Assembly (NCBI GenBank): GCA_963758295.1
Contig: CAVWUU010000004.1
Coordinates: 384,001 to 448,000, forward strand
Length of the DNA: 64,000 bases
From: Candidatus Eremiobacteria bacterium
Lineage (GTDB): Bacteria; Vulcanimicrobiota; Vulcanimicrobiia; Vulcanimicrobiales; Vulcanimicrobiaceae
Direction of reading: 5' to 3'
The position numbers were made by a program, and so were the translations under genes. Of this stretch, positions 20,908 through 26,800 are shown piece after piece (positions within the stretch are counted from its first letter, which is position 1; each line of letters opens with the position of its first letter). The notes under the pieces are model-generated. The model saw only the letters and a program-made list of their open reading frames with translations, was not told the origin of the DNA and ran no database searches.

Positions 20908-22593
20908 TTGATCAAGCACGACGTCGTCGTCATTGGTGGCGGTCTGGCCGGCATGCGCGCCGCAGTCGAAGCTGCGGAGCTCGGGGCCGACGTCGCTATC
21001 GTTTCAAAGATGCACCCGGTGCGCAGCCACTCCGGCGCCGCACAGGGCGGCATCAACGCCGCACTCGGAAACCGCGAAGAGGACAGCCCGGAAGCCCATA
21101 CCTTCGACACGGTGAAAGGCTCCGACTATTTGGGTGATCAGGACGCCATCGAAGCGATGTGCGAAGATGCGCCCAAACAAATCATTTGGCTCGAGCATCG
21201 CGGCTGCATCTTCTCCCGTCTGCCTGACGGCCGGATTGCCCAGCGCCCCTTCGGCGGCGCCGGCGCTCCCCGCACGTGCTACTCCGCGGACGTAACCGGC
21301 CTCGTTATCCTGCACACCCTTTGGGAGCAGCTCGAGCGCTTCGGCGTCAAAGTCTATGAAGAGTACTTCTGCACGGCACTCGCGACCGAAGACGGCATCG
21401 GAACCGGCGTGGTTGCGTACAACATGCGCAATGGACAACTCGAGCTGATCACCGCCAAAGCGACGATCTTCGCGACGGGCGGCGCGGGCCGCATGTACCT
21501 CAAGACAACCAACGGCTACGCATCGACGGCCGACGGCATGGGGATTGCATACAAGGCGGGCATCCCGCTGATGGATATGGAGTTCATGCAATTCCATCCC
21601 ACCACGCTCAAAGAGAACGGCGTGCTAATGACCGAAGGTGCGCGCGGTGAAGGCGGCTACCTGATCAACGCCGATGGCGAGCGCTTCATGTTCAAGTACG
21701 CGCCAAATAAAGGCGAACTCGCTTCGCGCGACGTCGTTTCCCGCGCTGAATGGACGGAGATTCTCGAAGGCCGCGGCGTGAACGGCTGCGTCATGCTCGA
21801 CCTGCGTCACCTCGGACGCGAAAAGATTCTCGAACGTCTCCCGCAGATTCGCGAGCTCGCCCTCGACGCAACCGGCAAGGATGCGATCAACGAGCCGATT
21901 CCGATTCTTCCCGGCGCTCACTACACCATGGGCGGCATCGAAACCAACAAGTTCGGCGCAACTCGCATCCCCGGCGTCTATGCCGCGGGCGAGTGCGCGT
22001 GTGTCAGCGTCCACGGTGCAAACCGGCTCGGCGGCAATTCGCTGCTCGACACGATTGTCTTCGGAGCGCGTTCGGCACGCCACGCCGTCGAGTACATCAA
22101 GCAAGTCGGCGACGTAAAGCCGTCGGAACGCACGCTCAAGCAAGAACAGGACCGCGTCAAGGAACTGCTCTCGCGTACGAGCGGTACGCGGGCGCCGCAG
22201 CTGCGTCACGCCATGAACGTCACGATGAGCGATAACGCATTCATCTTCCGCGACGAAGAGGGCCTTCAGGCCGCTGTCGACGAGCTCACGCGCGTTCGCA
22301 AGGAATTCGATGCGGGCGTTTACGTGATGGACAAATCGTCGACGTTCAATACCGACCTCGTCTCGACATTCGAGACCGACTATCTCATCGACGCGGCACT
22401 TTCTCTCGCGACCGGCGCGCTCAATCGCAAGGAATCGCGCGGAGCCCAATCGCGTACGGACTTCCCCGAACGCGACGACGCCAACTGGATGAAGCACACG
22501 CTTGCGTGGCGCCAAGAAGACGGCACGCCGCGTATGGATTACTCGCGAGGCATTACGATCACGAAGTTTGAGCCGCAGGTGAGAACGTACTAA
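20908..22593 (+). CDS. sdhA: Succinate dehydrogenase/fumarate reductase flavoprotein
   Basis: [16 protein letters not shown] (covalent FAD His), [27 protein letters not shown]. Confidence 0.97.
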
Positions 22594-22596
22594 ACG

Positions 22597-23568
22597 ATGG
22601 CAAATATTAAACTCGATATCTTCCGTTTCGACGAAGCGACCGACACGATTCCGCATCGCGATGTCGTTGAAGTCGACGTTCCCGAGACGATGACGGTGCT
22701 CGACGCCCTCGAAACCGCCAAAGCGGAAATCGACGGATCGATCAGCTTCCGCCGTTCGTGCCGTTCCGCAATCTGCGGTTCGTGCTCGATGAACATCGGC
22801 GGCGTCACCAGCCTCGCTTGTAAGACCCCGTGCAACGCGGTCATGGACGAAGACAACGTCGTCAAGGTCGACCCGATGCCGAATTTCCAGCCGATGAAAG
22901 ACCTCGTCGTCCATATGGACCCGTTTTGGGACAAATATGCGCGTCTGAAGCCCTATCTCCAGCCGAAGGACAAAGACTCGGAGCACCAGACCGAGCGCCG
23001 CGTTTCGCCCGACGACATGAAAAAACTCGTCGACGTCGCGAACTGCATCATGTGCGCAACGTGCTACGCGCTTTGCCCGGTCGTGAGCGTCGACCCGGCC
23101 TTCGCCGGGCCCGCGGCGATCGCGTATGCGTACCGCTTCATCGAAGACGTGCGCGACGGCAAGCGTGAAGAGCGCATCGGCCAGATTTCCGAAGATTATC
23201 TCTGGCTGTGCGCGCACTGCTACGCGTGCTCGTACTGCCCAAAACACGTCAATCCGAACGATCGTATCGTCGATGTGAAACGTGCCGCGGTGAAGGATCG
23301 CGTTATGATGGACGAACGCGGACCGCGTCACGCGCTCGTCGTAGCAAAGACGATCAAGCAGACCGGTATGCTTGCGGAAACCGAAGTCATTCTGGGGACC
23401 GTGGGACGCTTCAACATCAAGGGCATGCTGAAAGTCACATTCCTCGGCGCGGCGCTCGGCGCACGCATGGGCCTTAAAGGCAAACAGCCGCCCATCTTCG
23501 TTAAGCCGATTCCGAAAGTGGACGAAGTCCGCACAATTTTTGAAGCCCTGGAGGTCCCGGTCAGCTAA
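22597..23568 (+). CDS. sdhB: Succinate dehydrogenase iron-sulfur subunit (type E-like, C-terminal extension)
   Basis: CRSAICGSC...C (2Fe-2S), CIMCATCYALCP, CAHCYACSYCP. Confidence 0.93.
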   Translation: MANIKLDIFRFDEATDTIPHRDVVEVDVPETMTVLDALETAKAEIDGSISFRRSCRSAICGSCSMNIGGVTSLACKTPCNAVMDEDNVVKVDPMPNFQPMKDLVVHMDPFWDKYARLKPYLQPKDKDSEHQTERRVSPDDMKKLVDVANCIMCATCYALCPVVSVDPAFAGPAAIAYAYRFIEDVRDGKREERIGQISEDYLWLCAHCYACSYCPKHVNPNDRIVDVKRAAVKDRVMMDERGPRHALVVAKTIKQTGMLAETEVILGTVGRFNIKGMLKVTFLGAALGARMGLKGKQPPIFVKPIPKVDEVRTIFEALEVPVS

Positions 23569-24518
23569 TGTCTGCCACTCTTCTTCCCGAAGACCGCGCC
23601 GTCGATTCGCACAAGGCATCGAAGTCGCGTGAAACCAAGCGGTACGGGTTTTTCCCGGGCTGCGTCGCCAAAGAGTCTTGCAAAGAACTTTTCAACTCGA
23701 CGATGCTTCTTGCCGACAAACTGGGCATCGAACTGATCGAGCTGACCGCGGCATCGTGCTGCGGCGCATCGGTTGTCAACGACGTGAACCGCGACGTCGC
23801 CCGCGTGCTCAACGCGCGCACGTACGCTCAAGCCGAGGCCCTCGGTTTGGACGACGTCATCACGATCTGCTCCACGTGCACCGGCCACATGCGCGCGGCC
23901 AACAAAGAACTGCTCGAGAGCGAAGAGCGCATGGACCATGCCAACGCCATCCTCGGCAAGTTCGGCGCGAAGTACAACGGCGGCGTCATGGTGCGCCACC
24001 TGTTGTGGATGCTTATCGACGACATCGGGCTCGACAATCTGCGTAAGATGGTCGTGCGTCCGCTCAACGGCCTTAAAGTTGCGCCGTTCTACGGCTGCCA
24101 TATCATCCGTCCCGAAAACGTCAACGGCTGGGAATCAGCCCGCAATCCGCATTCGCTTGAAGACGTCATCGAAGCACTCGGCGGTGAAGCCGTCGACTAC
24201 GCCGGCAAGACGCGTTGCTGCGGCTTTCACATCCAGCTCGAAAAAGACAACACCGCGGCAAACATGGTCGGTCAGAACATGCGCATGGCGAAGGACCACG
24301 GCGCGGAAGCCGTGATCACCCCGTGCCCGCTGTGCCATCTTGCGCTGGACGGCTATCAACAAGATTCTGCGGCGCGTTGGGGCCGCACGGATCTGCCGAC
24401 GTTCCACCTTCCGCAGCTCGTCGCGTTCGCGCTCGGCGTTGCCCCGGAGAAACTTGGCTTGAACAAGCACCTGATCGATCCGCGCACCATCATGGTGGAA
24501 CGCGAGCTCATTAGCTAA
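23568..24518 (+). CDS. CCG-domain (HdrB-like) subunit of type-E succinate:quinone oxidoreductase
   Basis: FPGC...SCCG...CSTC and YGC...RCCG...CPLC tandem CCG domains. Confidence 0.9.
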   Translation: MSATLLPEDRAVDSHKASKSRETKRYGFFPGCVAKESCKELFNSTMLLADKLGIELIELTAASCCGASVVNDVNRDVARVLNARTYAQAEALGLDDVITICSTCTGHMRAANKELLESEERMDHANAILGKFGAKYNGGVMVRHLLWMLIDDIGLDNLRKMVVRPLNGLKVAPFYGCHIIRPENVNGWESARNPHSLEDVIEALGGEAVDYAGKTRCCGFHIQLEKDNTAANMVGQNMRMAKDHGAEAVITPCPLCHLALDGYQQDSAARWGRTDLPTFHLPQLVAFALGVAPEKLGLNKHLIDPRTIMVERELIS

Positions 24519-24621: not shown

Positions 24622-24840
24622 TCAGACTACTTGATACGGGACCACGACTTCGATCCGGTCCACGTTTTGGGCGGGTATTTCTATCTGGTCGCCGTCGAAG
24701 CACACCAGCGGCATCGAATGACTGATGCGCTCAAGCATGTTTTCGCGCACGAATTCCGCCATTTCCCGTTGATTGTAGCGCTCGCATACGCTCTTACCGT
24801 CACGTAAACGAACCCAAAGCTCTACTGCAGCGTTGTCCAT
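24622..24840 (-). CDS. Small hypothetical protein (72 aa)
   Basis: GGAGG RBS before ATG (MDNAAVELWVRL...); candidate -10 TACCAT at 24860..24865; own terminator. Confidence 0.7.
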   Translation of the reverse strand: MDNAAVELWVRLRDGKSVCERYNQREMAEFVRENMLERISHSMPLVCFDGDQIEIPAQNVDRIEVVVPYQVV

Positions 24841-25030
24841 GTCGTCCTCCGAGATGGAGATGGTACCCACAAAATGGAAAGCCGCTCTCGGCTTCCAGCC
24901 GGAGAGCGGCCTTTTCTCGTCTGCGATCGTAGGTTTTCGCCGATTCGTGAACGCCGCCGGGGCGGAGATTCACGGGCGGCCCGAACCGAGGCACGATGCC
25001 GGACAAACGCCGGGGCTTTTTCTTTGCCAT
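24800..25030 (-). CDS. Small basic protein (76 aa), candidate ArfA/BrfA-like alternative ribosome-rescue factor
   Basis: GGGAGG RBS, extended -10 TGnTACTAT (25048..25056), MAKKKPRR...HESAKTYDRRREK; terminator hairpin inside the ORF. Confidence 0.6.
   Translation of the reverse strand: MAKKKPRRLSGIVPRFGPPVNLRPGGVHESAKTYDRRREKAALRLEAESGFPFCGYHLHLGGRHGQRCSRALGSFT
24871..24914 (-). terminator. Intragenic intrinsic terminator within the 76-aa ORF
   Basis: GCCGCTCTC(C)GGCT-GGA-AGCCGAGAGCGGC followed by TTTCCATTTT. Confidence 0.65.
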
Positions 25031-25082
25031 AGTAGACCTCCCACGGGATAGTAACACAGAGGTCGAACCACCCCGTTGCAAT

Positions 25083-26800
25083 ATGACGACCGCTGCCGTG
25101 CCTGCCGCGACCATCGATGGCCATCTGGAAGAGTTGCGCGCCGGCGCCGGCCGCTGGATCGCCATCCGACCCGCCCAAAAAGCCGCTTTGCTTACAAGCG
25201 TTCGCCAAAGCGTGGCAGCGAGGCCGAGCGCTGGGCGGAGGCCGGCTCGCGCGCAAAGGGAATCTTGCGGGCACGCCCCTTGAGGGCGAGGAATGGATAT
25301 CCGGGCCTTGGGCGGTGCTTTACGCGCTCAACCGCTATATCGACACGCTGCAGCAAATCGATCGAACCGGCGCACCGGGTTTCCCGCAACGCGTCTGCGC
25401 GAACGGCCCGGCGGACAACTCGTCGCCGACGTCTTCCCGTCTCGCTCTACGAAAGGTGCTGTTCAACGGCATTCGTGCCGAGGTGTGGATGGAGCCCGAC
25501 GTAAGGCGCGCAAGTTTGCGGAAACGCTCGGTATTTGGTACTGCAGCGCTCATCGCGACGCCAAGAGTCGCGTTGGTGCTCGGTGCAGGGAATATCTCTT
25601 CGATCGCCCCGCTGGACGTCTTCTACAAACTCGTTGCCGACGGCACGTTTGCATTCTGAAAATCAATCCGGTGAACGAGTATCTCGGGCCCGATTTTCGA
25701 GGCGGCCTTGAAACCGCTCGTCGACGGCGGATACTTGCGTTTCGCGTACGGAGGCGCGGAAACCGGCAAGTATCTAACCAATCATCCCAACATCGACGAG
25801 ATTCACATCACCGGAAGCGACAAGACGTTCGACGCGATCGTGTTCGGTGAGGGAGCCGAAGGCGCGCAACGGAAGCTTCGCGACGAAGCGATGCTTGAGC
25901 AAGCCCATTTCGAGCGAGCTTGGAAACGTCAGCCCGACGATCGTGGTTCCCGGGCCGTGGAATGATGACGATTTTGCGTTTCAAGCCCAAAACATCGTCA
26001 CCCAAAAGATGCACAACGGCGGGTTCAATTGCATCGCTTCACAGGTGTCGATCGTCCCTCCGATTGGCCCGGCAGCCGCCGATTGCTCGACGCAATTGCG
26101 CGCGTCATGGAACGCTCGCGGATCGGCCCGCCTACTATCCTGGAGCGGAGCACGGCAAGAACGCCTCACCATAAAGGATGCGGCCTTCAACGCTATGGCC
26201 GGAGTGGCGATGGCTTTGTTGCGCGAACCGTTCTGCACACCGCCCCGGATGAAACCGCGCACATCGCGTTTCGCAACGAAGCTTTCAGCAGCGTCCTCGC
26301 GGTGAAACGCTTGCCGGCGATACCGCCGCCTATCTGAAGCGGGCAGTGGATTTCGCAAATGCCGCTCTGTGGGGCACGCTTGGCGCAAACTCATCGTGCA
26401 TCCGGAAACAATGCGCGATTTCCCGGAAGACGTAGATAACGCGATTGCGAGTTTGCGCTACGGTTGCATCGGCGTGAATGCATGGACCGGAGTGGGATAT
26501 TTCATTGCTGAAACGCCGTGGGGCGCGTATCCAGGCCACGCGCAAAACGACATCCAAAGCGGAACCGGCGTAGTCCATAACAGCCACCTATTCTCCAGAT
26601 CGGAAAAGAGCGTCGTCTATGCGCCGTTCGCGCCGTTTCCACGAAGCTTCGCCGGATACGGCAACACGTTGCTTCCGAAGCCACCGTGGTTCGTAACGAA
26701 TAAAATGGCGGCGCACATCGGGCGCGCGCTTTGTGATTTTGAGGTGCGAAAAAACCCAATTTCCATGTCGCGCGTCGCTTTGTTAGCCCTGCTAGCCTAG
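25083..26800 (+). pseudogene. Aldehyde dehydrogenase family gene broken by more than 10 frameshifts (probably sequencing errors)
   Basis: Fragments across all three frames: LGAGN, LKINPVN, HITGS, SELGNVSP, GFNCIA, LRYGCIGVN, PWGAYPGH. Confidence 0.8.

Follow-up and report, generated by a model that had tools for sequence, protein, structure and literature searches.

A Conserved Basic Protein of Eremiobacterota Encoded Across a Covarying Hairpin: A Candidate Ribosome-Rescue Factor

The 64,000-nucleotide (nt) stretch of Candidatus Eremiobacteria bacterium DNA analyzed here (assembly GCA_963758295.1, contig CAVWUU010000004.1, positions 384,001 to 448,000; hereafter the window) encodes on its minus strand a very basic, Lys/Arg-rich protein, designated P0001, within whose open reading frame (ORF) a GC-rich hairpin followed by a T-rich tract is located ahead of the stop codon. 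The gene is real and under protein-level selection, and selection on the hairpin acts at the level of RNA; the sequence pattern as a whole lies far beyond chance, with a covarying hairpin at the same codons in 64 of 84 loci. The position of the stop codons relative to the hairpin makes a non-stop mRNA likely, and by analogy we assign a probability of roughly one half to the reading that P0001 is a new rescue factor, not homologous to those known and gated by trans-translation as are ArfA and BrfA. A preliminary description of this DNA had proposed a rescue factor of this kind; the homologues, the hairpin, the stop-codon placement and the presence of transfer-messenger RNA (tmRNA), SmpB, RF1 and RF2 speak for that proposal, while the equivalence that it drew with an ArfA motif amounts to the resemblance of a short motif and the 20 of 84 loci that lack the hairpin count against it.

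The P0001 Family and Its Distribution

Relatives of P0001 were detected at E ≤ 1e-5 in 16 of 41 related genomes, all from the same taxonomic family (counts over the 41 genomes include G004, G024, and G036, which are flagged as unpublished; locus L005 is from G004, and no conclusion hinges on these three by themselves). The matches in these 16 genomes span query residues 1 to about 45–65 and never the tail, and the homologous ORFs, of 49–82 amino acids (aa), share the sequence M.KKKRR..VPRLGPPxNLRPAGAHxSKKxYxRKRxKAALRREAESGF, beyond which they diverge completely. The core that is invariant family-wide is GPPxNLRPAGAH, and the K.Y.RK segment is conserved only inside the main clade. A profile search of 1.84 billion representative proteins returned 116 clusters at E ≤ 1e-3, 46 of them at E ≤ 1e-10, comprising proteins of 34–184 aa in most of which the match begins within the first 10 residues. 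The preliminary description had expected annotation pipelines to miss the gene; relatives are in fact already held in protein collections, albeit with over-long C-termini, and those that are named are entered as "hypothetical protein." The spurious long C-termini of database entries follow from the ORF being open far past the hairpin in some genomes. At L039, L046, L054, L066, and L087 it continues for 130–358 codons beyond the hairpin, across or antisense to neighboring genes, and at L054 it spans, in another frame, the entire gene for P0002, the neighbor of P0001 described below.

A pattern scan of species genomes, which is biased to the motif [PA]xNLRPAGAH, yielded 78 loci, nearly all in metagenome-assembled genomes (MAGs) titled Eremiobacterota, Vulcanimicrobiota, Baltobacteraceae, Tumulicola, Aquilonibacter, or Rubrimentiphilum, and a few in MAGs with other labels. 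Among 301 genomes sampled evenly from the phylum, 94 gave a match; these belonged without exception to the window's own family (93/206), and none of 94 genomes from 20 other families matched, with only 22 candidates scored per genome and a miss not equivalent to absence. As far as sampled, the P0001 family is limited to one family of the Eremiobacterota/Vulcanimicrobiota.

Substitutions follow a coding pattern up to the hairpin. Codon positions 1 and 2 are 79% identical vs. 46% at position 3 (91 pairs among 14 loci hand-chosen from the window's own genus and the AAL/ESG hairpin class), and in the core of 54 loci the three codon positions have GC contents of 0.66/0.51/0.73. In the tail, DNA identity is 27%, the random level, and GC by codon position is 0.65/0.67/0.57 (42 tails, a set that excludes 10 doubtful loci and tails of fewer than three codons), indicating the lack of coding periodicity; tails of relatives range in length between 0 and over 300 codons and cannot be aligned. 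The preliminary description had reasoned that homologues should exist, that their protein conservation should stop at the hairpin and that the hairpin itself should be conserved; homologues are indeed present, their similarity ends at the hairpin, and the hairpin is both conserved and covarying (see below). Codons 1–52 are likely to represent the real product, and from the sequence the tail (codons 53–76) is probably absent from most transcripts.

Signals for expression are also found among relatives. A TAnnnT box lies 8–35 nt upstream of the start in 50 of the 81 related loci with enough upstream DNA and is preceded by TGn in 25 of those 50, and a Shine-Dalgarno-like GGAG, GAGG, or AGGA occurs within 20 nt upstream of the start in 47 of the 81. 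Searches of P0001 against Pfam (no match at E ≤ 10) and NCBIfam gave nothing. Rfam matches at E ≤ 1, to RsmW (24.8 bits vs. 52) and RefA9 (25.5 vs. 49), were sub-threshold and were taken as chance. In an AlphaFold2 (AF2) model built from 114 sequences, with a mean predicted local distance difference test score (pLDDT) of 75 that falls to 56–59 past residue 50, residues 1–35 are extended without secondary structure and a single helix covers residues 36–48. P0001 is thereby predicted to be a basic, largely unstructured protein of about 52–55 residues, of the kind predicted to fold only on a partner such as ribosomal RNA.

An Intragenic Hairpin Selected at the RNA Level

In the window, the 66 nt around the hairpin fold at −31.7 kcal/mol, vs. 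−19.6 ± 3.1 kcal/mol for shuffled sequences (z −3.9), and none of 200 shuffles fold as well; the hairpin core has an energy of −23.0 kcal/mol and is followed by 6 T among the next 9 nt. Loci pooled from the searches numbered 94, of which 84 were distinct. Under a rule that is independent of the stop codon (energy ≤ −12 kcal/mol and a start 15.5–21.7 codons after the invariant Asn), a hairpin is found at the homologous position in 64 of these 84 loci, here called hairpin-type loci.

Covariation was assessed in 83 aligned loci of all classes, with the window's stem imposed on the alignment. Paired cells amounted to 73%, vs. 33–45% with the partners shifted by 1–3 columns; the corresponding covariation scores were 0.219 vs. 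0.058–0.127, and double-sided changes were present in 89 cells vs. 39–62. In 500 shuffles, the values observed for pairing, covariation score and double-sided changes were never reached. The exchanges can be followed at the level of codons, where Ala-Ala-Leu encoded by GCC GCT CTC stands opposite Glu-Ser-Gly encoded by GAG AGC GGC in 15 loci, GCC GTC/GTT CTC (with Val) opposite GAG GAC/AAC GGC (with Asp or Asn) in 7 loci, and GCC GCC CTC opposite GAG GGC GGY in 3 loci, a fourth having GCCGCTCTT with GAAGGCGGC and one mismatch. Thr ACC is found opposite Gly GGT in three loci, and ATC GCC CTG (Ile ATC) opposite CAG GGC GAT (Asp GAT) in another set of three. The largest class, AAL/EDG, with 15 loci, retains one C.A mismatch, and 7 loci have other stem solutions (KAAL.KAAF or AAL..AAL). 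Because a synonymous change in Ala pairs with a Ser, Gly, or Asp replacement opposite, it is the RNA structure and not the peptide that is kept, and the hairpin of P0001 clearly illustrates how an RNA structure can dictate the residues encoded on both of its arms.

Terminator Character and Placement of Stop Codons

By its sequence, the hairpin in the window fits the layout of an intrinsic terminator, a GC-rich stem and then a U-rich tract, and an A-run (Lys codon) is located upstream of the stem in hairpin-type loci. Of the 64 hairpin-type loci, 50 have 4 or more T among the 9 nt that follow the GC core, and 40 have 5 or more. The neighboring P0002 gene ends in a canonical terminator, and the lineage therefore uses intrinsic terminators.

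Intrinsic terminators release RNA about 7–9 nt past the stem. With distances counted from the final G-C pair in the core stem, 3 of the 64 loci complete their in-frame stop codon by +9 nt and 6 by +12 nt; in 58 it lies farther away, up to 929 nt, so that most terminated transcripts would end without a stop codon. A stop codon before the hairpin, which the preliminary description had named as grounds for abandoning its proposal, is found in none of the 64, nor is one found inside the hairpin core; the earliest stops are at +1, directly after the core, in L013 (where the hairpin is doubtful) and 4 nt after the core in L050. On this placement, a non-stop mRNA architecture for P0001 appears likely.

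Rescue Components in the Host Genome and Its Relatives

The genome from which the window derives is 82% complete and encodes a tmRNA (119.7 bits with the Rfam model), SmpB, RF1 with the PAT motif (L029:850-1950) and RF2 with the SPF motif (L030); ArfA or ArfB was not found in it. The tmRNA locus (G000:C3:45733-46087, L023) was not recognized as a tmRNA by ARAGORN and the Rfam result was kept; the tmRNA may be unusual or permuted, or may simply have been missed by ARAGORN. A match to the ArfA model at C1:105026-105085 (17.4 bits) corresponds to a K/G-rich frame antisense to a 273-aa ORF and was taken as chance.

ArfA was found in none of the 41 related genomes. Genes with an RF-1 domain number two in 36 of the 41, three in G008, one in G022 and G039 and none in G005; their open frames are about 345–446 aa, short frames being contig-end or RF2 fragments. 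No extra copy of ArfB size was detected among the 41 genomes apart from one frame of 126 aa (G029:C25:2652-2924, minus strand; RF-1-domain match of 111 bits) in the fragmented genome G029, which belongs to a neighboring family; this frame could be either a contig-end RF2 fragment or an ArfB-like gene.

Proposed Mechanism and Significance

We infer that transcription terminates at the hairpin, that tmRNA exerts control, and that the protein binds ribosomes and recruits release factors, these being the steps by which P0001 may act. A strong promoter and a short leader would drive transcription of P0001, which would end mostly at the hairpin and its T-tract, about 25 codons ahead of the stop codon; as termination would occur mostly inside the ORF, the main P0001 mRNA would be devoid of a stop codon. 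Ribosomes would then reach the mRNA's 3′ end, and tmRNA-SmpB would tag the product for degradation. When trans-translation is saturated or failing, untagged P0001 would be expected to build up and, by analogy with ArfA and BrfA, its Lys/Arg-rich segments may bind the empty mRNA channel of stalled ribosomes, where the bound protein would recruit RF2 or RF1 to free the peptide.

The known release-factor-dependent rescue factors are small, fast-evolving and mutually unrelated, and have so far been found by genetic screens in cultured bacteria. Such factors may instead be findable by a signature, namely a covarying intragenic terminator in a small basic ORF with conservation that ends at the hairpin. 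If the rescue-factor reading is true, P0001 would be a candidate back-up rescue system for a whole uncultured phylum, the soil Eremiobacterota. A more elaborate scheme, which we regard as improbable as a whole, is that Eremiobacterota possess an independently evolved trans-translation-gated module made up of a self-terminating factor of ∼53 aa and the acidic P0002, with GPPxNLRPAGAH as a novel ribosome-sensing core and the hairpin-less sisters marking a switch between constitutive and tmRNA-gated expression. No prior report of trans-translation in Eremiobacterota, or of such a non-stop-regulated rescue factor since 2020, was found in the literature.

Alternative Explanations

Several observations weigh against P0001 being a trans-translation-gated rescue factor, some of them bearing on its function and others on its mode of expression. 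With respect to function, a comparison by hhalign of the 114-sequence family profile with a 15-sequence enterobacterial ArfA alignment gave a probability of 0.09%, indicating that the two are not homologous, and the P0001 profile had no match at E ≤ 10 among all PDB chains. The preliminary description had equated KTYDRRREK of P0001 with the KGSYxRK segment of ArfA, which in view of this profile comparison amounts to the resemblance of a short motif. ArfA has a KH motif in the basic C-terminal segment that contacts the mRNA entry channel, according to the part of the review consulted (PMC8012679), and this dipeptide, described there for both ArfA and BrfA, is not conserved in the P0001 family; it is missing from P0001 itself and is not a conserved element of the family consensus ...AGAHxSKKxYxRKRxK. 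A basic segment is present. The GPPxNLRPAGAH core is without counterpart in any known Arf. The host genome also carries an RqcH-like gene (NFACT_N, 54.7 bits), so that another back-up pathway is possible. Finally, the 20 of 84 loci without a hairpin form sub-families with ordinary stop codons, and the function of the family therefore does not require non-stop expression.

The hairpin-less members end in ...DLNVD or ...AEAEEQE immediately before the stop codon, these acidic C-termini being conserved, and many are located directly after a GNAT (Acetyltransf_3) gene and not behind a promoter of their own. The ...VDLNVD sub-family comprises L079:1501-1620, L067, L071, L073–L075, L080, L081, L085, L088, L089, and L093. 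At L079 the gene begins at the stop codon of the GNAT (Acetyltransf_3) gene, and at the other VDLNVD loci the upstream 70 nt encode, by eye, the same C-terminus as that of the GNAT in L079. VDLNVD is itself coded by a palindrome, GTCGACCTCAACGTCGAC, which forms a 6-bp hairpin right before the stop codon.

The points on function leave room for a non-stop-gated P0001 that does not recruit release factors, for which we see a minor chance. P0001 would then be another stress-induced ribosome- or RNA-binding factor and could, for example, resemble a hibernation factor or modulate tmRNA-SmpB or ribosome-associated quality control (RQC), possibly together with P0002. The evidence on gene architecture applies equally to such a protein, and the lack of similarity to any Arf, the core unlike that of known Arfs, the linkage to P0002 in 28 of 84 loci (hairpin-less ones included) and the position of hairpin-less members behind a GNAT gene all agree with it. 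Set against this, no proteins other than the rescue factors ArfA and BrfA are known to be produced purposely from non-stop mRNA, as far as the consulted parts of two sources go (PMC6881298; PMC8012679), the size, charge and predicted disorder of P0001 fit the ArfA/BrfA class, and the search of the lineage for ArfA or ArfB found neither.

As to the mode of expression, 14 of the 64 hairpin-type loci have a poor T-tract, with at most 3 T in 9 nt, and about 10 of the 64 hairpins are doubtful by eye (L013, L054, L064, L071, L075, L087, L095, L102, L107, and L108). The distance from the hairpin to the in-frame stop codon (median 26 nt) is also shorter than that to stops in the other two frames (medians 97 and 65 nt; Mann-Whitney p = 1e-5, 64 loci), a comparison in which the control-frame distances are inflated by downstream genes. 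A back-up stop, such as arfA and brfA also retain, is likely to be under some selection, and selection for a downstream stop implies that read-through transcripts are probably translated.

These same stop distances and weak T-tracts speak for an ordinary stop-ended protein whose hairpin would leave most transcripts unterminated and would instead act on mRNA stability, provide a site for an RNase or, as a translation-coupled attenuator, set read-through into P0002, and in the window the start of P0002 lies only ∼40 nt past the hairpin, the P0001 tail overlapping its ribosome-binding site and ATG. We consider such a protein unlikely. The tails are 27% identical, lack coding periodicity and in some genomes extend over 130–358 codons, either antisense to other genes or overlying them in a different frame. 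Of the 84 loci, 59 lack P0002 on the downstream side and 3 have it upstream, a conserved −10-like box is situated at variable spacing between the hairpin and P0002, and most of the hairpins resemble canonical terminators. The third possibility, a chance ORF in GC-rich DNA or an assembly indel artifact around the terminator hairpin of a non-coding RNA, is very improbable, for although long chance ORFs are common at the GC content of the window and a nearby aldehyde dehydrogenase gene is split over several frames by indel errors or decay, it is already contradicted by 116 conserved clusters with a coding-type substitution pattern and by a start, ribosome-binding site and frame conserved across genera, and Rfam has no match at gathering score.

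Sequence Elements and Neighboring Genes

The elements of P0001 and P0002 are listed in Table 1. Those that the preliminary description had named for P0001, a 76-codon ORF with an extended −10, GGGAGG, the hairpin and the T-run, are all located where it had placed them, the hairpin together with TTTCCATTTT accounting for codons 41–54; it was also right that the tail crosses the ribosome-binding site (GGAGGA, 24850-24845) and start (ATG, 24840) of the next gene.

Table 1. Positions of P0001, P0002 and their sequence elements in the window
Feature	Position	Strand	Remarks
P0001 ORF	25030-24800	(-)	76 codons; ATG 25030-25028, TGA 24802-24800
Candidate extended -10 of P0001, TGtTACTAT	25056-25048	(-)	TG 25056-25055, TACTAT 25053-25048; read from sequence
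Shine-Dalgarno of P0001, GGGAGG	25042-25037	(-)	6 nt ahead of ATG; read from sequence
Conserved coding part of P0001, codons 1-52, MAKKKPRR...GPPVNLRPGGVH...KTYDRRREKAALRLEAESGFP	25030-24875	(-)	Conservation in relatives
Intragenic GC-rich hairpin, codons 41-50 (AALRLEAESG), 13 pairs	24910-24881	(-)	Fold and covariation
Hairpin core, GCCGCTCTCCGGCT-GGA-AGCCGAGAGCGGC	24910-24881	(-)	
T-rich tract 3′ of hairpin, TTTCCATTTT, expected transcript 3′ end	24880-24871	(-)	
Unconserved tail of P0001 ORF, codons 53-76 and TGA	24874-24800	(-)	Tails in relatives not alignable
Candidate -10 of P0002, TACCAT	24865-24860	(-)	Inferred
P0002, 72 aa, acidic, unnamed family	24840-24622	(-)	Homologues; no Pfam/NCBIfam match
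Canonical terminator of P0002	24614-24597	(-)	

In the window's own genus the box TGGGTA(C/G)(C/A/T)AT precedes P0002 at variable distance from the hairpin; it is kept in L001–L004 despite 28 nt inserted between hairpin and box in L003 and L004, and this sequence fits a separate promoter for P0002. A P0002 homologue is encoded on the same strand in 28 of the 84 P0001 loci, downstream in 25 and upstream in 3, with hairpin-less sub-families included. The P0002 family has 18 homologues, limited to Eremiobacterota and "hypothetical" where named, and P0002 has no match in Pfam or NCBIfam; a single row for the longer, GTG-start form (ACT_ACR9_3rd, E 0.1) was taken as nothing. The AF2 model of P0002 (pLDDT 88.7) has the order strand-strand-helix-strand-strand-strand. 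A Foldseek search with it gave nothing at E ≤ 0.001 and placed Lsm/Hfq and Rv3208A at E 0.04–0.06; the best structural match (VIA-wide) was Rv3208A (7rur_A; Z 6.8, root-mean-square deviation 3.0, 61 aligned residues), which is within the common range of the tool and not decisive. The profile of P0002 against the PDB returned only noise. A toxin-antitoxin pairing of P0001 with P0002 was considered, but no observation hinted at one, although no search aimed at it was made.

On the opposite strand, a divergent aldehyde-dehydrogenase-like gene (25117-26800) is broken into four or more ORFs that lie in different frames, and its counterpart in L079 is a single ORF of 470–514 aa (PF00171). The split suggests either frameshifting indels in the assembly or a decaying gene; a completeness of 82% in spite of only six contigs fits indel errors. 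On its other side, P0002 and its terminator face a converging three-gene operon (20908-24518, plus strand), which we take to encode the flavoprotein, iron-sulfur and Cys-rich (CCG-type) subunits of a succinate dehydrogenase/fumarate reductase.

Comparison with Known Systems

ArfA, BrfA, and ArfT are thought to be independent in origin, and further small release-factor-recruiting factors, hard to find by similarity, are expected to exist, according to the sections of the review seen here (PMC8012679). A basic K.Y.RK-like segment is common to ArfA and P0001, KGKGSYMRKGK in Escherichia coli vs. AKTYDRRREK just ahead of the residues encoded by the hairpin. In arfA a stem-loop gives rise to a non-stop mRNA via termination or RNase III cleavage (PMC8012679, in part), and P0001 likewise appears from its sequence to have a stem-loop inside the ORF ahead of the stop codon, with the stop retained codons downstream. 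ArfA belongs to beta- and gamma-proteobacteria, and the P0001 family to a different phylum. ArfT of Francisella, as described in the portions available (PMC6514570; PMC8012679), is also a small charged protein for which sensing of the empty channel and recruitment of RF1 or RF2 have been proposed, and it forms part of a wider family with a charged helix (PMC6514570); those portions make no mention of ArfT being regulated through a non-stop mRNA.

A short ORF overlapping a terminator hairpin upstream of another gene is also reminiscent of leader-peptide attenuators; P0001 differs from these in that its peptide is conserved over 116 clusters, mostly without the downstream gene. In a language-model search, the nearest clusters were partly DUF7230 (PF23876; 18% and 44% of members, scores 0.89), a family of which no mention was found in the literature. 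One distant member of the P0001 family, P0069, touches DUF7230 over HKDRKKYDRKAKNAEEN with 17 bits against a cut-off of 27; membership was rejected, with none of 114 members above the cut-off and 1 of 114 sub-threshold. DUF7230 was detected in none of 101 genomes of the phylum, a search in which the controls were also silent.

The closest parallel is brfA (yqkK) of Bacillus subtilis, which the text consulted describes as a gene of 71 codons with an internal Rho-independent terminator and a product of about 62 aa that is repressed by trans-translation, BrfA being presented there as without similarity to other Arfs (PMC6881298). A relation between P0001 and BrfA did not emerge, as judged from the profile search of PDB chains (the BrfA entry, 6SZS, is cited in the review) and from the AF2 model, in which P0001 is extended over residues 1–35, whereas BrfA is reported to have N-terminal helices. 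The two genes are alike in length (71 vs. 76 codons) and in having a terminator in the coding region and a basic product, and a Rho-independent terminator upstream of the stop appears to be present in P0001 as in brfA (13-pair stem, TTTCCATTTT and A-run). The encoded tail is reported to be missing from brfA mRNA, and the same would be expected of P0001 from its sequence alone. The host of P0001, like that of BrfA, also has tmRNA/SmpB and an RqcH-like gene. By sequence, P0001 is a member of neither the ArfA nor the BrfA family, and resembles brfA in the architecture of its gene.

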